64,000 bases of DNA. Origin: Planctomycetota bacterium. Its GTDB lineage: Bacteria; Planctomycetota; Phycisphaerae; WQYP01. This document shows, one piece after another, positions 56,392-63,430 of this stretch. Numbering within the stretch: the first letter of the stretch is position 1; each line of letters begins with the position of its first letter. The position numbers were made by a program, and so were the translations under genes. The DNA lies in the NCBI GenBank assembly GCA_021818445.1, contig JAKAEB010000015.1, forward strand, positions 50 through 64,049, in the 5' to 3' direction. Under the pieces are notes generated by a model, which was not told the origin of the DNA, did not search any database, and saw only the letters and a list, made by a program, of their open reading frames with translations.

Positions 56392-57264
56392 ATGGATTGG
56401 CAGGAATCGGAATCAATTTCAAACATTTTTCCGCAAATCACACGACGCGAGTTGCTGGCGGCACTTGGTGCCGGGGCCGTCGCTGCGGGGCTGGGCGGCT
56501 GTGCCAGTGACAACATGCAGCAACCGATGGCAGACAGCATGCAATTGCCGGACGGCCACCTGCCTCCGTTGCAGACATCGCGAACGACGCCCATGGACAC
56601 CGGCTATTCGCCACCGACCAGTTTTGTGACCAAGCAACCGTACCAGCGGCCGGTTAAGCCGGCTGCCGCGCGGGGCCCGTTGGGTATTATCCCACGATCG
56701 GCATGGACGTCGGCTGGCCCGGCACTACCCACCATCATGCCGATGAATGGCGTGCACCTGATTACCTTCCATCATTCGGGCGACCCGCAGCCGTTTCTTG
56801 AGGATTCGGTGGAGGGTACCGCTCGATATCTTGAGGCCATTCGCAAATGGCAGGTTGGACAAGGCTTTCAGGACATTGCCTATCATTTTGCGAATGACCG
56901 TATGGGCCGCATCTGGCAGTTGCGTGAGCTGAAATACCGCGGTGAGCATGTGCGTGACGGATTTGCGTGGCCACGGTGGCTGGATACGTATGTGCAGAAA
57001 GCGAATTCACCAACGCAACCGGTCAAAGGGCGATTCGTCTGGAACGCCCACAATATCGGGATCGTCACCCTCGGCAACTTTATGATTCAGGAACCGACGG
57101 AATATCAGAAACGGCGCATTGTGGAATTTGGCCGCCTCGTGCGCAATCTTTACCAGATACCCATCTATCACTGCTACACACACCAGGAGTTGGTTTCAAC
57201 CCTGTGCCCGGGTGCCAAGTATCAGCCATATATGGAATCCATTCGCCGCAGTGGAGCGATGTAA
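56392..57264 (+). CDS. N-acetylmuramoyl-L-alanine amidase (amidase_2/PGRP family) with Tat-lipoprotein signal
   Basis: The N-terminus TRRELLAALGAGAVAAGLGGCAS is a twin-arginine signal plus lipobox. The amidase_2 zinc-binding motifs are present (HLITFHHSG ... HFANDRMGRIWQ ... GNFMIQEPT ... C). Confidence 0.8.
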   Translation: MDWQESESISNIFPQITRRELLAALGAGAVAAGLGGCASDNMQQPMADSMQLPDGHLPPLQTSRTTPMDTGYSPPTSFVTKQPYQRPVKPAAARGPLGIIPRSAWTSAGPALPTIMPMNGVHLITFHHSGDPQPFLEDSVEGTARYLEAIRKWQVGQGFQDIAYHFANDRMGRIWQLRELKYRGEHVRDGFAWPRWLDTYVQKANSPTQPVKGRFVWNAHNIGIVTLGNFMIQEPTEYQKRRIVEFGRLVRNLYQIPIYHCYTHQELVSTLCPGAKYQPYMESIRRSGAM

Positions 57265-57461: not shown

Positions 57462-58862
57462 GTGTCCAGCGAAAAATTTGATCTGGTGATAATAGGTTCC
57501 GGCCCCGCAGGTTATGTTGCCGCAGTCCGCGCTGCGCAGCTTGGGAAAAAGACGGCTTGTGTTGAGAGAAGTGAACTGGGGGGAATATGTCTCAATTGGG
57601 GTTGCATCCCCACCAAAGCACTGATTTCCGATGCGCACTTGATGCATCAATTGCAGCATGTCGCCCCTCATTACGGCATTAAGGCGGACGTGGGAGGCCT
57701 GGATTGGTCGAAAGTTGTCGACCGCAGTCGGCAGGTAACCCACACGATGAGCAAAGGGATCGAATTTCTTTTCAAAAAAAATAAAGTTACGCGCTTCACG
57801 GGCAGTGCGTACATTGCCAAACCAAACTTAGTTGAGGTGAAGGATGCGGCCGGCAAGACTACGGCCAATCTTGAGACAGATCACATCCTGGTATGCACCG
57901 GTGCCCGGAGCCGGGAACTGCCGGGGATTAAATGCGACGGTAAACAAATCATAACCAGTCGGGAAGCGATGGTGCTGCCCAAGATTCCCAAGCGGATGAT
58001 CATCATCGGAGCGGGGGCGATTGGCGTTGAATTCAGCTATATTTACCACGCCTTCGGCACGCAGATTACGCTTATTGAGATGCAGCCGACGATTTTACCC
58101 ATTGAAGATGCGGAGAGCAGTGCCCGGGTTGAAGCCATATTTAAAAAGCGCGGCATTGAGGTACGCACCGGCACCAAAACCGAAGGGGTGCAGGCGGGGA
58201 GCGACGGTGTAAAAGTGGTGGTATCAGCCGGCGGCAAGCAGGAAACACTTTCGGCGGATGTTGTGCTGGTGGCAGTCGGCGTGACGGGAAATACTGAAAA
58301 CCTATTTTCGCCGGCGGCGATGCCGGACATCGACCGTGGTGCGATTAAAGTTGATAAATCATTCCGAACCCGGATTCCGTCGATTTATGCCGCAGGGGAC
58401 GTGATCGGCCCGCCATGGCTGGCGCACGTGGCCAGTATGGAGGCCACCATCGCCGTGGAACGGATGTTTGGTGCCAGCGATCGTGAGATGGATTACAGCG
58501 TGGTACCGGGCTGCACATATTGTGCACCGCAGGTGGCCAGTGTCGGCCTGACGGAAAAGCAATGCCGCGACAAGGGACTGGAAATCAAGATAGGCAAATT
58601 TAATTTTGCGGCCAACGGCAAAGCCCAGGCACTCGGTGAAATCGATGGCTTTGGCAAGCTGATTTTTGACGCCAAATACGGAGAGTTGCTCGGCGCGCAC
58701 ATTGTCGGGCCGGAAGCGACGGAGATATTGTCCGAGATGGTACTGGCGAAACGGCTGGAGGCAACACAGAAGGAAATAGCTACCACCATCCACGCCCACC
58801 CCACGCTTTCAGAAGTGCTGATGGATGCCGCCCAAGCGGTAGATGGCGGAGCACACGCCTGA
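57462..58862 (+). CDS. lpdA: dihydrolipoyl dehydrogenase (E3)
   Basis: The FAD-binding GSGPAGY motif, the redox-active disulfide GGICLNWGCIPTK, the NAD-binding GAGAIGVE motif and the C-terminal HAHPTLSE dimerisation motif are all present. Confidence 0.95.
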   Translation: MSSEKFDLVIIGSGPAGYVAAVRAAQLGKKTACVERSELGGICLNWGCIPTKALISDAHLMHQLQHVAPHYGIKADVGGLDWSKVVDRSRQVTHTMSKGIEFLFKKNKVTRFTGSAYIAKPNLVEVKDAAGKTTANLETDHILVCTGARSRELPGIKCDGKQIITSREAMVLPKIPKRMIIIGAGAIGVEFSYIYHAFGTQITLIEMQPTILPIEDAESSARVEAIFKKRGIEVRTGTKTEGVQAGSDGVKVVVSAGGKQETLSADVVLVAVGVTGNTENLFSPAAMPDIDRGAIKVDKSFRTRIPSIYAAGDVIGPPWLAHVASMEATIAVERMFGASDREMDYSVVPGCTYCAPQVASVGLTEKQCRDKGLEIKIGKFNFAANGKAQALGEIDGFGKLIFDAKYGELLGAHIVGPEATEILSEMVLAKRLEATQKEIATTIHAHPTLSEVLMDAAQAVDGGAHA

Positions 58863-58907: not shown

Positions 58908-60698
58908 ATGACTGACATGAATGACAACCCGTTTCTGAATCGGCCAGTTCAGCGGCCAGAATCAAATACTGCCGGTTCAGCATCGCCCCCCCCGCCGGTA
59001 CCGCTGACACCGACACCGCCATCGCCGACCGAACCAGCCCCGCATCCGCGGGTGATGTCCGCTGGTGCTCGAAGCGTCCGTGACACACTTCAAACCGTGC
59101 TGTTTGCCCTGCTGCTGGCGTTCAGCTTTCGTACGTTTTGCGTTGAGGCATTTGTTATACCGACGGGGTCGATGGCACCTACGCTTAACGGAGCGCACTT
59201 TCGGGTGATATGCCCACAATGTGGATACCGGTTTAACGCCGACGCCAATGTGGAAGTGCAGTATGTCAATGGGCGTCTGGTGCAGGTGGGCAATGCGCAA
59301 TTGGAAAACACCAACGCCATTCCTTCGCCAACTTATCTGGTCTGCCCCAACTGCCACGCCCTGATTCCCGCCACCAGTCTGCCCGATAAACCCGTGATTG
59401 CACGAAGGTTTGTCAATTCCAGCGGCTCGGCTTCCCGTACCATTTATTTTCCACACGCCAGCAATGGCGATCGCATTTTAATTCTCAAGTTTCTTTACTG
59501 GTTTCATCCACCGAAACGCTGGGATGTGGTCGTGTTTCGGGAGCCTCGGTTCGGAAAGCAGAATTTTATCAAACGCCTCGTGGGCCTGCCGGGCGATACC
59601 GTCCGCATCATCTCCGGCGATGTCTACATCAACGGCAAAATCGCGCATAAGCCCCCGGCAGTGCAACGCGCCATGCTGCAATTGGTTTATGACAACGATT
59701 ATTATCCAACTGACGCCGGTAAGCCACGCATCGACGGCCGCACATGGACCACGCCCTGGATTTCACATGTTGACGAAACTACCGATGGTAAATGGTTCAC
59801 GGCCGGGCCGGTCGTCCGATTCGAGAGTGGCAATCCGGCGGCACGTGGACGGATCACGTTCCAGGATCGCGGACGTTACTTGTACAACGACTCAAGCTAT
59901 AACAACCGTCGCATCACCAAACGAGGACACCATTTAGTCGGCAATCTGTATTTGCATACCCTTTGGACGCCTCACACGGCGTCGGCTGGCATATCCCTAA
60001 GCCTGGGCAAACCGGACGCCCGCTTTAAGACAACTTTGGACAGCGCCGGTTCGATCGTCCTGTGGCAATGGAATAACAATCAGCATCGCTACCGAGTGGT
60101 TCCGAAAAAGCAGTGGGACTTTCACCATCGCGTCGGTGTGCTGCTGGCAAACCATTCATACCGGATCGCCATGGCAGACTGCCAGCATCAGGTGCGTTTC
60201 TGGATCAATGGCCGCCTTGTGATGCAGTACACGCCGACTTGGACGGTCGCCATGGCATTGGCACAGTATGCCAAAGAGGCCGGTGGGCATCGTATGAAAC
60301 CGCGGATATCCGTTCATGTGATGGGTGCCTGCACGCTGCGGCACCTGATACTGATGCGTGATATTTACTACACGCAGATGCGCCGTCAGCTACCATCCAC
60401 CAATCCGTATGATCCATTGGGTTCAGTACCGGGGACGGGCACAATGAATAACCCGATTACGCTTAAAGCGGGTCAATACTTTGTCCTCGGCGATAATTCC
60501 AATGACAGTGATGACTCGCGTGCGTGGGGCCATATCGAGCCAATTCTGCGTGCAGAGGGTATCCCTTATGGAGTGGTTCCGGCCCGTTACATGATGGGAC
60601 AGGCGTTTATGGTCTATTGGCCGGCGGGTTTCCGCCCCCTGCAATCAATCAACATTCCGATCATACCCAACGTGGGCCGCATGCGCCTGATTCGTTAG
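58908..60698 (+). CDS. lepB: signal peptidase I (S26) with Pro-rich N-terminal extension and large zinc-ribbon-containing insertion
   Basis: It carries box B ([12 protein letters not shown], catalytic Ser), box C (ILILKFLY), box D ([13 protein letters not shown], catalytic Lys) and box E ([18 protein letters not shown]). It is 596 aa versus ~180-320 typical. The insertion carries CPQCGYRF...CPNCHALIP. Confidence 0.85.
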
Positions 60699-60864
60699 TA
60701 GCACAGGTTATATCGCACGTCCAACGGGACCATTATTGGGCACCAGAGGCCCCTGTGCTGCCGATGCGCTGACGATGGAGCCATTGGGCCTTTTTTCTTT
60801 CCCCACCCGCCGCGTGTTTGCCAAAAAAAGCTCTTTTAGGCTAGAATACTTGGTTCGTGAATTC

Positions 60865-60937
60865 GGCGGCGTAGCTCAGTTGGTAGAGCGCGGGATTCAT
60901 AAGCCCAAGGTCTCCGGTTCGAGTCCGGACGCCGCTA
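60865..60937 (+). tRNA. tRNA-Met (anticodon CAT), CCA not encoded
   Basis: Cloverleaf layout: acceptor GGCGGCG/CGCCGCT (G1.U72), D-arm GCTC-AGTTGGTA-GAGC, anticodon loop TTCATAA, variable AGGTC, T-arm TCCGG-TTCGAGT-CCGGA and discriminator A. The acceptor and T-arm resemble elongator tRNA-Met. The anticodon stem has only 3 G-C pairs flanked by C.A and A.G mismatches. Confidence 0.75.
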
Positions 60938-60999
60938 TTGGTTTTTGGCAAAGGCAGCGTTGGATAGCTGCGCAGAATATAGAACCAGAAGGAAATATT

Positions 61000-61227
61000 A
61001 TGAAAAACGACATCCATCCGAACTACAATTACGTGAAAGCGTCATGTGCCTGCGGTAATTCGTTTGAGACCGGCTCCACTTTGGGGCGTATTGAAGTAGA
61101 TATTTGTGGCGTATGCCATCCGTTCTACACCGGCAAGCAGAAATTTGTTGATACGGCCGGACGCGTTGAACGCTTCCAGAAAAAGTTTGGTAATTTCAGC
61201 GCCAAATTGGCCACTAAAGCTAAGTAG
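61000..61227 (+). CDS. rpmE: 50S ribosomal protein L31 (zinc-binding type)
   Basis: The sequence [48 protein letters not shown] is canonical L31 with Cys ligands. An AGGAAA RBS lies upstream. Confidence 0.9.
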
Positions 61228-62434: not shown

Positions 62435-63430
62435 TCAGCGTTTGCACCCCACCACATTGGCATTTGTGTGGCCGGCGGCAAAGTCATCAAGATTGATCAT
62501 GGTTGTCTCCGCAATGGTTTGCAATGCCTCAACCGTAAAAAACGCCTGGTGACCCGTCACCACCACATTGGGAAACGTCAAAAGCCGCGAAAACAGATCG
62601 TCGGTGATGATTTCATCGGCCAGATTTTGAAAATAAAGGGCGGCTTCCTCTTCGTAAACGTCAAGCCCCACCGCACCGATATGATGGTTTTTGAGCGATT
62701 CGATAAGAGCGGCCGTATCGACCAGAGCACCACGACTGGTATTGACCAATATCGCACCACGAGGCATGCGGGCCATGGATGTTGCATTAATTATGTGATA
62801 GGTATCGGGTGTCAGTGGAAGATGAAGTGAAATAATCCGCGACTCGGCCAGCAACTCGTCAGCCGAAACATACGTCAGGCCCAACGCCTCGCAGACGGGA
62901 TTTTTTACAGGATCACAGCCGAGCAACCGGCAGCCCATTGAGTGCAGAATGTTGGCCAGCGCGGTACCGATCTTTCCGGTACCCATGAGGCCAACGGTCT
63001 TACCATGCATATCAAACCCGAGCAGGCCGTCGAGCAGAAAATTTCCGTCGCGCACCCTTGTGTACGCCTTGTGCACGCGGCGGTTGAGCGTAAGTATTAA
63101 TGCCAGCGCAAATTCCGCCACGGCGTAGGGCGAATACTCCGTCACGCGCATGACTGTCAGGCCGCAATCAGCAGCAGCGCGCAGATCGACGTGATTAAAC
63201 CCGGTGCTGCGCAACAACAGAACACGCGTGCCGCCGTCGGCCAATATCTCGATGACGCGGCGAGCAAGGTTGTCATCGACGAAGACACAGAGAGCAGGAA
63301 AGTCACGGGCCAGCAATGCCGTTTCCTCGCGGAGTGCAGTATCAATGAACACCAATTCGTGCCGCCCTTTGTTGGCATGCGTAAGAAACTCCCGATCGTA
63401 AGGGCGGCTGCTGGTAACGAGACATCGCAT
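62435..63430 (-). CDS. D-isomer-specific 2-hydroxyacid dehydrogenase (D-lactate dehydrogenase-like)
   Basis: It has the NAD-binding GLMGTGKIGTALANIL motif and the catalytic R/E/H triad region (RGALVD ... HQAFFT). It is 331 aa. Confidence 0.8.
   Translation of the reverse strand: MRCLVTSSRPYDREFLTHANKGRHELVFIDTALREETALLARDFPALCVFVDDNLARRVIEILADGGTRVLLLRSTGFNHVDLRAAADCGLTVMRVTEYSPYAVAEFALALILTLNRRVHKAYTRVRDGNFLLDGLLGFDMHGKTVGLMGTGKIGTALANILHSMGCRLLGCDPVKNPVCEALGLTYVSADELLAESRIISLHLPLTPDTYHIINATSMARMPRGAILVNTSRGALVDTAALIESLKNHHIGAVGLDVYEEEAALYFQNLADEIITDDLFSRLLTFPNVVVTGHQAFFTVEALQTIAETTMINLDDFAAGHTNANVVGCKR

Follow-up and report, generated by a model that had tools for sequence, protein, structure and literature searches.

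A long-form type I signal peptidase of Phycisphaerae with a zinc-ribbon-like Cys4 module and a jelly-roll domain inserted in its catalytic core

Results

A complete signal peptidase gene of unusual length

The stretch of DNA analysed here (the window, 64 kb) contains one gene of peptidase family S26, a complete open reading frame whose features are collected in Table 1. Its product is about twice the usual size for such an enzyme, as an earlier note on this DNA had pointed out, and the S26 boxes that the note had listed are indeed intact: box B carries Ser88, the KRLVGLPGD motif of box D (residues 222-230) carries Lys222, and box E (residues 528-538) fits the pattern G-D-N-x-x-x-S-x-D-S-R. The 596-residue protein scores well above the cut-offs of both TIGR02227 (115.5 bits against 47, E 2e-33) and the Pfam family PF10502 (127.3 bits against 22.9, E 7e-37). 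It falls far below the threshold of NF008114, the enterobacterial LepB equivalog (61 bits against 277), which places it in the same functional class as LepB but outside the enterobacterial orthologous subfamily. Boxes B, C/D and E can be aligned to the structure chains of E. coli LepB, and the AlphaFold model of the full-length protein (pLDDT 83.7, pTM 0.82) retrieves the LepB structures 1kn9 and 1b12 in Foldseek searches (E 6e-6 to 1e-5).

Table 1. Features of the signal peptidase gene, with positions in the window
Feature	Position	Strand	Remarks
Long-form type I signal peptidase gene, complete	58908..60698	+	ORF, ATG start; 596 aa + stop
Cytoplasmic N-terminal tail (predicted), aa 1-59	58908..59084	+	conserved 'DNPFLN' motif, then Pro-rich low-complexity linker
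Single transmembrane anchor, aa ~60-80	59085..59147	+	aligned with TM2 and the 'RSFIYEPF' junction of E. coli LepB
Box B with nucleophile Ser88	59157..59189	+	motif residues 84-93; aligns to IPSGSMMPTL of E. coli LepB
Insertion 1, Cys4 zinc-ribbon-like module, aa 95-185	59190..59462	+	between box B and the 'GDRILILKF' strand
Knuckle 1, CPQCG, C102 + C105	59196-59243	+	within insertion 1
Knuckle 2, CPNC, C146 + C149	59328-59375	+	within insertion 1
Further beta-hairpin of insertion 1	aa 164-181	+	after knuckle 2
Catalytic core strands, box C, and box D with general base Lys222	59463..59600	+	residues 200-233 align to boxes C/D of E. coli LepB
Insertion 2, ConA/galectin-like beta-sandwich (predicted), aa ~250-515	59655..60452	+	between boxes D and E, where E. 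coli LepB has domain II
Box E (Ser534, Asp536, Arg538)	60483..60527	+	aligned with GDNRDNSADSR in E. coli LepB
C-terminal core strands GVVPxRYxxGxAFxVYWP and tail IPNxGxMRxIR	60528..60695	+	columns invariant or nearly so in homolog alignments

Among 433 non-identical relatives, which share 29-88% identity with the protein, Ser88 and Lys222 are invariant, and the box E residues S534, D536 and R538 are kept in all but three (430/433). Readings of the gene as a pseudogene, or of its product as an inactive pseudo-peptidase, were rejected on the strength of this catalytic conservation and of identical copies on other contigs. On these sequence comparisons the protein is very probably an active type I signal peptidase of the LepB type (MEROPS S26A).

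The length of the reading frame, unusual as it is, could in principle be a product of assembly or annotation, such as a chimeric insertion or two fused ORFs. However, a protein 100% identical to this one (P0001) recurs on 23 contigs that were assembled independently and that come from different samples in ENA, Logan and NCBI. Hundreds of homologs are collinear with it, the GC content stays between 0.55 and 0.57 throughout the gene, and the model is a confident single chain. These observations rule out an artefact for practical purposes, and with it the mis-assembly that the earlier note had named as a possible refutation.

Two separate insertions rather than one

The predicted N-terminal tail bears out the description of a Pro-rich arm in the earlier note. 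It has 15 Pro in residues 1-59, with 12 of these concentrated in the 25 residues of the linker (aa 24-48, nt 58977-59051), and residues 1-43 are disordered in the model (pLDDT <50). The linker varies in length among homologs and is missing from shorter ones, and an 'NP[FL]L' motif in the tail is common to the Phycisphaerales-type homologs. After the tail comes the only hydrophobic peak of the protein (residues ~61-84), modelled as a helix spanning residues 52-78. This membrane anchor directly precedes box B, as in LepB, and has positive charges on its N-terminal side; in the alignment, the E. coli delta2-75 chains start against residues 74-98. Both the homology and the flanking charges suggest that the catalytic domain lies on the trans side of the membrane.

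The same alignment to E. coli LepB shows where the additional length resides. The earlier note had proposed one insertion of ~330 aa between boxes B and C/D, but there are two separate ones. Box B and box C/D are 102 residues apart, compared with 23 in E. coli LepB (a net gain of 79), and boxes D and E are 287 residues apart, compared with 108 (a net gain of 179). The larger of the two, which had gone unrecognised, thus lies between boxes D and E and is predicted to form a ConA/galectin-like beta-sandwich. The C-terminal tail IPNxGxMRxIR has low model confidence (pLDDT 52-56).

A conserved Cys4 module adjoins box B

Insertion 1 contains four Cys residues, C102, C105, C146 and C149, arranged as CPQCGY ... 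CPNCH. The spacer that follows 'CPQCGYRF' is 36 residues long and not 41 as first counted; the recognition of a knuckle pair resembling zinc ribbons or rubredoxin within what is predicted to be the periplasmic catalytic domain nevertheless stands, with both CxxC motifs placed at hairpin turns. Loss of these residues from orthologs would have spoken against the module, and 422 of the 433 non-identical relatives (29-88% identity) retain all four. The module itself ranges from 53 to 141 aa among relatives and its remaining sequence is variable, such that only C, P, C, G of the first knuckle and C, P, N, C of the second are invariant. Seven relatives that have lost one Cys keep the other three, and among substitutions at the ligand positions 9 of 15 are to Asp. 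In lineages that lost the Cys residues (P0030, P0031 and P0158) the enzyme is otherwise intact. The loop can also be elaborated further: of 119 homologs, 13 have another CxxC...CxxC pair nested within it; for one of these (P0078) the precomputed Pfam annotation gives the zinc ribbons PF13717 and PF13248.

The structure models are consistent with this arrangement. In the full-length model the module region reaches a pLDDT of ~88-95 and both CxxC motifs adopt a strand-knuckle-strand form, and the module modelled alone folds alike (pLDDT 84.7). Strands E97-101 and E108-112 flank C102..C105, and strands E143-145 and E152-154 flank C146..C149, in both AF2 models. Sequence profiles point in the same direction at low significance: the zinc-ribbon Pfam matches of the 596-residue protein have E values of 0.02-0.5, all under their cut-offs, while those of relatives reach E 1e-6 and are still just under the cut-off. 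Nearly all sub-threshold Pfam matches of the module are to zinc-ribbon or rubredoxin-like families. Searching the PDB with the isolated module in Foldseek returned no significant match (best E 0.29), and the weak matches include zinc-ribbon ribosomal proteins and an RNA polymerase subunit.

In all likelihood the four Cys residues act as one structural unit, and judging from the sequence patterns and the models this unit probably binds a metal rather than forming disulfides. Alternatively, the residues could form two periplasmic disulfides that staple the hairpins, giving a disulfide-stabilised knuckle module with no metal. Several considerations favor this possibility. The module should be periplasmic by homology to the LepB topology, and an oxidising periplasm would favor disulfides. 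Few exported bacterial proteins are known to contain a Cys4 zinc site, and a periplasmic disulfide is present in domain II of E. coli LepB. Moreover, neither the Foldseek nor the Pfam searches gave a significant match to a proven zinc ribbon. We nevertheless regard disulfides as the less likely outcome. CPxCG knuckles at the tips of beta-hairpins represent classical metal-chelating geometry, Asp can be a metal ligand whereas it can form no disulfide, and relatives with exactly three Cys would be left with an unpaired thiol. These Asp replacements and three-Cys proteins are the pattern expected of a metal site and not of disulfide pairs, and a structural site is what one recognises where nothing but the ligands is conserved in a hypervariable loop. 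A structural zinc site is favored on the combination of these features.

A jelly-roll domain in the position of domain II

Insertion 2 is modelled as a domain of ~265 aa with about 15 beta-strands, mostly at pLDDT >90. Its best Foldseek match is the CBM66 structure 4b1m (E 1.4e-6, probability 1.00, TM(target) 0.65-0.67), followed by galectin LEC-6, GH16, PL7 and VIP36. The ConA-like matches as a whole span E 1e-6 to 1e-4 at sequence identities of only 8-13%. We assign insertion 2 a predicted ConA/galectin-like jelly-roll fold on the basis of the model. Sequence searches give weaker indications of the same kind, with galectin matches at E 0.025-0.04 when a profile of the domain is compared with the PDB, and weak, sub-threshold matches to the Pfam families 3keto-disac_hyd and Gal-bind_lectin in 2-3 of 17 members. 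No Pfam family is matched above threshold, and the domain could not be placed in a specific sequence family (Gal-bind_lectin, Laminin_G_3 or 3keto-disac_hyd). It has no conserved Cys.

Searching sequences clustered at 50% with a profile of insertion 2 gave 1,958 representatives, and 955 of these reach E<=1e-10. Among the best 150 of these 1,958 matches, about a quarter of which are shorter fragments, the domain occupies the expected position within the peptidase wherever box B or box D is retained. Of the 97 new representatives in which box B is present, 91 have two CxxC motifs as well.

The long form is widespread in Phycisphaerae and related Planctomycetota

Over 100 full-length homologs (32-88% identity) are named as signal peptidase I from Phycisphaerae, Sedimentisphaerales or Planctomycetota, and among GTDB species genomes at least 594 encode the long form. 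The best 80 GTDB genomes are all Planctomycetota except for one MAG titled Candidatus Aegiribacteria (L050), and some GTDB matches carry record titles of Pirellulales, Planctomycetaceae or Aegiribacteria, these being MAG labels as titled. A homolog search seeded with a divergent 'APRL' subtype (P0077) returned only Phycisphaerae and Planctomycetota MAGs. We estimate the size of the two-insertion family at about 1,000-2,000 clusters at 50% identity. The long architecture is almost certainly the norm in Phycisphaerae and related Planctomycetota, and not an oddity of this gene.

Gene neighborhood offers no clue to function. The adjacency of lpdA and lepB is kept only among closer relatives, and the rpmE and prfA genes located downstream are not conserved among relatives. 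Because the family is widespread and the window holds a single S26 gene, we infer that the enzyme is of the housekeeping type, in a lineage-specific variant.

It is conceivable that the long form is instead a paralog with a specialised task. Its ribbon and lectin-like domain would then pick out certain substrates, such as glycosylated or envelope-specific preproteins, and a canonical short LepB would be encoded elsewhere in the genome. At least three long-form subtypes occur in Phycisphaerae MAGs ('APTL', 'ADTL' and 'APRL' after the nucleophile) and could be paralogs. In addition, the inserted domain has a predicted fold of the carbohydrate-binding type, and insertion 1 begins right after the box B that carries Ser88, presumably close to the S1 and S3 pockets, if the structure of E. 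coli LepB is a guide. However, at least 594 species genomes and ~1,000-2,000 clusters are what would be expected of a universal single-copy function, and all catalytic and box residues are strictly conserved. No second S26 gene accompanies this one in the window, no short Phycisphaerae LepB surfaced in searches that were not designed for one, and no sugar-binding residues were identified in the jelly roll. A specialised paralog is unlikely on this evidence.

Discussion

We put the probability at roughly 80% that the gene encodes a membrane-anchored Phycisphaerae type I signal peptidase in a long form that is standard for the lineage, with two modules grafted on the core. In such an enzyme the Pro-rich N-terminal tail would stay in the cytoplasm and one transmembrane helix would serve as the anchor. 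The periplasmic core would cleave the signal peptides of Sec/Tat-exported preproteins by means of the Ser88/Lys222 dyad, with support from box E (Ser534, Asp536, Arg538), a mechanism that we infer from family membership.

The two modules would extend this core at different places. Where a turn of 3 residues joins 'SMxPTL' to the 'GDxILVxK' strand in E. coli LepB, the long form has an excursion of 53-141 aa; the elements on either side of the turn contribute to the S1 and S3 pockets of E. coli LepB (Leu95, Ile101). The two CPxC knuckles of the excursion most likely chelate one structural Zn2+, which would staple the variable loop into a rigid arm beside the substrate cleft. The jelly roll appears to take the place of E. 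coli domain II. It would most likely cap the core or serve as a structural spacer above it, and it might possibly offer a glycan- or protein-binding surface.

More elaborate roles can be imagined for these modules. For example, the ribbon and the jelly roll might form a docking platform that adjoins the S1/S3 pockets and couples cleavage to the Planctomycete envelope, by receiving glycosylated or otherwise particular preproteins or a partner protein; or the Cys4-Zn center might sense redox state or zinc and thereby gate peptidase activity. We consider these two proposals quite unlikely even when taken together. The substrate selection or partner docking in a compartmentalised envelope that the earlier note had suggested is not needed to account for any of the findings. 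The sensor proposal on its own, in which a regulatory switch resembling the zinc centers of Hsp33 or RsrA responds to oxidative stress or a shortage of zinc by changing peptidase activity or the access of substrates, is very unlikely. The module does begin right after catalytic box B, presumably near the substrate pockets as judged from the E. coli LepB structure, the site should be exposed to the periplasm, and Cys4-Zn centers can be redox switches. Nevertheless, ligand-only conservation in a hypervariable loop points to a structural site, and in the lineages that lost the Cys residues the enzyme is intact in all other respects.

Type I signal peptidase is an essential and well-studied enzyme and an antibiotic target, and we know of no bacterial representative with a metal site. 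The literature that we searched, with most subscription journals outside its reach, holds no description of a Cys4 or lectin-like insertion in signal peptidase I. A whole bacterial class appears to use a signal peptidase with a Cys4 module beside the substrate pockets and a lectin-fold domain replacing domain II. If the Cys4 site does bind zinc, it would count among the few Cys4-Zn ribbons known to play a structural part in exported bacterial enzymes, and would raise the question of how, in the Planctomycete periplasm, the site acquires its metal and stays in reduced form. If either the docking or the sensor role were true, signal peptidase I would be regulated, or would select its substrates, in a way for which no bacterial example is known. 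The long form leaves the understanding of signal-peptide cleavage unchanged. The two modules define an unannotated domain family that is a candidate for Pfam or NCBIfam.

The protein shares with E. coli LepB its Ser/Lys dyad, the order of boxes B, C, D and E, the transmembrane anchor directly before box B, and the presence of a non-catalytic beta-rich domain between boxes D and E. The two differ in that LepB has two transmembrane helices, whereas only one is found here, together with a Pro-rich cytoplasmic tail. LepB has 3 residues between 'PTL' and 'GD' where the Cys4 module is located in the long form, and the jelly roll between boxes D and E is about 180 aa larger than domain II. The beta-hairpin that in E. 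coli follows 'GDFILVEKF' is presumably missing, judging from the sequence and from the LepB structure.

The modules have counterparts in other protein families. With Zn_ribbon_4 (PF13717), Zn_ribbon_3 (PF13248), DZR (PF12773) and RUBY_RBDX (PF21349), insertion 1 shares two CPxC(G) knuckles at the tips of beta-hairpins, and like generic zinc ribbons it has a spacer in the range of 17-40+ residues and conserves only the ligands and adjacent Pro/Gly. It is unlike them in its placement within a predicted periplasmic enzyme domain and in its sub-threshold Pfam matches; characterised zinc ribbons are, to our knowledge, overwhelmingly cytoplasmic. Insertion 2 resembles CBM66, galectins, 3-keto-disaccharide hydrolases (DUF1080), GH16 and PL7 in its predicted beta-sandwich jelly-roll fold, and differs from such ConA-like domains in its fixed position inside S26 peptidases and in having none of the known sugar-binding or catalytic residues that we could identify.

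Another bacterial leader peptidase, the prepilin (type IV leader) peptidase PilD (family A24), also has a conserved CxxC...CxxC motif, in its N-terminal domain. This motif binds zinc; it lies in a loop on the cytoplasmic side and has been connected with N-methyltransferase activity. PilD has an unrelated aspartic protease fold, and the resemblance is one of analogy and not of homology. The ribbon of one homolog gives a weak, sub-threshold match to the Cys4 domain of PilD (A24_N_bact, PF06750; E 0.006).

A signal peptidase I with two separate insertions

As the earlier note described, the gene is an open reading frame with an ATG start encoding 596 residues, and its GC content is even (0.55-0.57). 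Judged from its sequence, the product is an S26A member in which all catalytic and box residues are intact and strictly conserved. Pfam Peptidase_S26 matches it in three stretches, well over threshold (E 7e-37), and TIGR02227 (signal peptidase I) gives 115.5 bits against a cut-off of 47. With this membership, the enzyme would be expected to work in the same way as E. coli LepB, although it scores 61 versus 277 bits with the enterobacterial LepB equivalog NF008114 and thus falls outside that equivalog. No other S26 gene is found within the 64-kb window.

An AlphaFold2 model built on a 119-sequence alignment is confident (mean pLDDT 83.7, pTM 0.82), and its core matches E. coli LepB in a Foldseek search of the PDB (E 6e-6 to 2e-4). 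Residues 1-43 are disordered in the model, and the proline-rich N-terminus noted earlier is borne out by 15 prolines within the first 59 translated residues. A LepB-like membrane anchor lies immediately N-terminal of box B, where the one hydrophobic segment of the protein (residues ~61-80) is found and a helix is modeled at residues 52-78.

Three blocks match the E. coli LepB crystal chain by sequence: residues 75-98 (box B) align to chain positions 3-26, residues 200-233 (boxes C and D) to 49-82, and residues 520-544 (box E) to 190-214. This alignment corrects the earlier layout, which had proposed a single insertion of ~330 residues. Relative to E. coli LepB there are instead two separate gains, a net +79 residues from box B to box C/D, a stretch that includes all four cysteines of the Cys4 module, and a net +179 residues between boxes D and E. 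Likewise, the spacer behind CPQCGYRF is 36 residues rather than the claimed 41. Cysteines occur in the translation at positions 78, 102, 105, 146, 149, 425 and 475.

Features of the peptidase and of the neighboring region
Feature	Position	Strand	Basis or remark
Amidase_2 protein gene	56392-57264	+	
Dihydrolipoyl dehydrogenase gene	57462-58862	+	
Peptidase gene	58908-60698	+	
Extreme N-terminus, peptidase	58908-58943 (aa 1-12)		
Ala81 codon, peptidase	59148-59150		
Box B motif, peptidase	aa 84-93		translation
Core-strand motif, peptidase	aa 186-195		translation
Conserved-motif stretch, peptidase	aa 204-213		translation
Motif stretch with Lys222, peptidase	aa 221-230		translation
Box E motif, peptidase	aa 528-538		translation
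163-aa ORF, TTG start	60736-61227		over-extension of rpmE
tRNA-Met, anticodon CAT	60865-60937	+	Rfam 63 bits; ARAGORN; within the 300-bp gap from peptidase gene to rpmE
Ribosomal protein L31 gene (rpmE)	61000-61227	+	75 aa as called on contig L001
2-Hydroxyacid dehydrogenase gene	62435-63430	-	
915-aa fusion protein (L001 call), start	63498 to at least 63959, past the window's 3' end	-	CoA-binding, succinyl-CoA ligase-like, ATP-grasp and GNAT acetyltransferase domains

Conservation among relatives

Samples from ENA, Logan and NCBI contain 23 contigs that encode the identical protein (P0001) with its neighbors unchanged, and mis-assembly is therefore ruled out. A homolog search recovered more than 100 collinear full-length proteins of 510-820 residues with 32-88% identity, and those that are named are annotated as signal peptidase I of Phycisphaerae, Sedimentisphaerales or Planctomycetota MAGs. 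A GTDB scan with one genome per species yielded at least 594 confirmed relatives. The best 80 of these are mostly Phycisphaerales, Sedimentisphaerales and Tepidisphaerales, and all are Planctomycetota save one MAG titled Candidatus Aegiribacteria (L050). The closest among the matches listed is a MAG titled Phycisphaera mikurensis (85% identity). The long-form architecture is thus ordinary for its lineage.

Alignments of 34 and 119 homologs show Ser88 and Lys222 to be invariant and the four cysteines to be at least 97% conserved. Two CxxC motifs occupy the segment from box B to GDR in 78 of 80 genome loci (four motifs in 5 loci). In a pooled set of 433 non-identical full-length members, Ser88/Lys222 are present in all 433, the box E Ser/Asp/Arg in 430 and C-C-C-C in 422, which decisively counters the earlier concern that orthologs might not conserve the cysteines.

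Subtypes with APTL, ADTL and APRL occur within the family, and when the divergent APRL subtype was used as the query, the matches were again Phycisphaerae and Planctomycetota MAGs. Members of this subtype (loci L021, L025, L037, L041, L052, L057, L078 and L079, proteins P0076 and P0077, and matches of the APRL-seeded search), labeled Phycisphaerae or Planctomycetota, carry APRL[LM]G[EQ]HW behind the nucleophile, and their box D-E domain is longer, at 320-390 residues.

The Cys4 module

In the full-chain model the Cys4 region has pLDDT values of ~88-95, and each CxxC lies at the turn joining two short strands (97-101 and 108-112; 143-145 and 152-154). As modeled, this layout is a zinc-knuckle arrangement, and an extra hairpin (residues 164-181) returns from the module to the core. 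The same strand-knuckle-strand pattern appears when the module is modeled alone from 29 sequences (pLDDT 84.7). The module resembles zinc ribbons, yet lacks a significant match to any curated family or solved structure. The isolated module has no significant PDB neighbor (best E 0.29), its weak matches being archaeal zinc-ribbon ribosomal proteins and RNA polymerase I subunit A12.2. Almost all Pfam matches fall in zinc-ribbon or rubredoxin-like families, both for this peptidase (E 0.02-0.5, below cut-offs) and for modules from ten relatives, where E reaches 1.5e-6 yet the scores stay just short of the cut-offs. Invariance is confined to C-P-x-C-G and C-P-N-C; the sequences of the spacer and tail differ between members, and total length ranges from 53 to 141 residues.

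The pattern of replacement suggests that the four cysteines form a structural metal site, most likely for zinc, to which we assign a probability of roughly 0.6. The main rival, that they form two disulfides, is considerably less likely. Of the 15 replacements at ligand positions, 9 are aspartate, a residue able to coordinate zinc but not to form a disulfide; the others are 3 Ser, 2 Gly and 1 Thr. Moreover, seven proteins have lost a single cysteine and kept three (CCCD, CDCC, CCCS, CGCC), an odd number with which a disulfide model sits awkwardly. Two further proteins have D-S-C-D at these positions.

A second CxxC...CxxC pair is nested in the ribbon loop of 13 of 119 homologs. One of these, P0078, carries precomputed Pfam annotations of zinc ribbons PF13717 and PF13248. 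Eight-cysteine members with such a double zinc ribbon include P0078, P0082, P0099 and loci L013, L026, L043 and L051. Conversely, most of the cysteines have been lost from P0030, P0031 and P0158, whose catalytic core is intact.

The jelly-roll domain

Residues ~250-515 are modeled as about 15 strands and one helix, with pLDDT mostly above 90. The top jelly-roll match by Foldseek in the PDB is CBM66 4b1m (E 1.4e-6, TM 0.65-0.67 on the target), followed by other ConA-like proteins, including galectin LEC-6, GH16 glucanases, PL7 lyases, VIP36 and the botulinum Hc-N domain. The Foldseek output gives no query range for the aligned part, and we assign these matches to the box D-E insertion because a profile of this segment alone weakly matches galectins in the PDB (E 0.025-0.04, profile positions 156-200). 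Pfam yields no family above threshold over the segment, with 3keto-disac_hyd, Gal-bind_lectin and the trans-sialidase C-terminal lectin domain below it. The likeness to ConA-like proteins is one of fold only.

Searched against 1.84 billion cluster representatives, the profile of this insertion retrieves 1,958 proteins at E<=1e-3; the number falls to 955 at E<=1e-10 and to 130 at E<=1e-30. Among the best 150 of the 1,958, about three-quarters are 450-740 residues long and about one-quarter are fragment-like (240-450 residues); the match starts at residue ~180-350, or at the N-terminus in fragments, and none showed the domain outside a peptidase context. Exactly two CxxC motifs lie between box B and GD in 91 of the 97 new representatives that have box B. 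Together with the match positions, this indicates that the two insertions travel together as one conserved architecture.

Proposed mechanism and novelty

From what is known of the family, signal peptides would be removed at the periplasmic face with Ser88 as nucleophile and Lys222 as general base, and nothing points to a new cleavage mechanism. Insertion 1 replaces a three-residue turn that joins SMMPTL to GDFILVEK in E. coli LepB. In the structures of Paetzel et al., Leu95 and Ile101, which flank this turn, are reported to line the pockets S1 and S3; in that case the ribbon would emerge beside the substrate cleft. In the most economical reading, a metal-stapled ribbon would stiffen an arm specific to this lineage, and LepB domain II would be replaced as a cap by the jelly roll. 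Recognition of substrates or partners by the inserted modules is possible but unsupported.

The full-text literature searched, coverage of which is incomplete, contained no account of a signal peptidase with either insertion. The protein is accordingly an uncharacterised, apparently undescribed form of a known enzyme, widespread and already in databases under a generic name. A conserved periplasmic Cys4 site is unusual in an essential secretion enzyme.

Other sites and gene neighborhood

Ala81, seven positions before the nucleophile, is alanine in 419 of 433 family members; the equivalent position in E. coli LepB is the one mutated in the P84A structure 9nlo. Proline at this position confers natural arylomycin resistance, and the Ala81-bearing enzymes are therefore predicted to be arylomycin-sensitive. 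At the extreme N-terminus, [DN]-N-P-[FL]-L-N is conserved among Phycisphaerales-type homologs ahead of a hypervariable proline-rich linker, and this motif may function as a docking peptide in the cytoplasm.

The peptidase gene starts 46 bp after the end of the dihydrolipoyl dehydrogenase gene. This adjacency is kept in relatives of at least ~41% identity (L004-L012) and lost in more distant ones, with no functional link apparent. The Amidase_2 protein (N-acetylmuramoyl-L-alanine amidase family) has an N-terminus resembling a twin-arginine signal with a lipobox after it (ITRRELLAALGAGAVAAGLGGCAS), and would therefore be a substrate of signal peptidase II, not signal peptidase I.

Downstream lie tRNA-Met, rpmE and prfA, which are not conserved neighbors. 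The 163-aa ORF is an over-extended rpmE, since it crosses the tRNA-Met gene. L31 itself is of the cysteine form, CxC...CxxC (SCACGNSF ...), the zinc-binding type, and is a second Cys4 motif adjoining the peptidase gene. The 915-aa fusion is of the protein acetyltransferase/ADP-forming acyl-CoA synthetase type, and its gene is reported to be convergent with that of the 2-hydroxyacid dehydrogenase.
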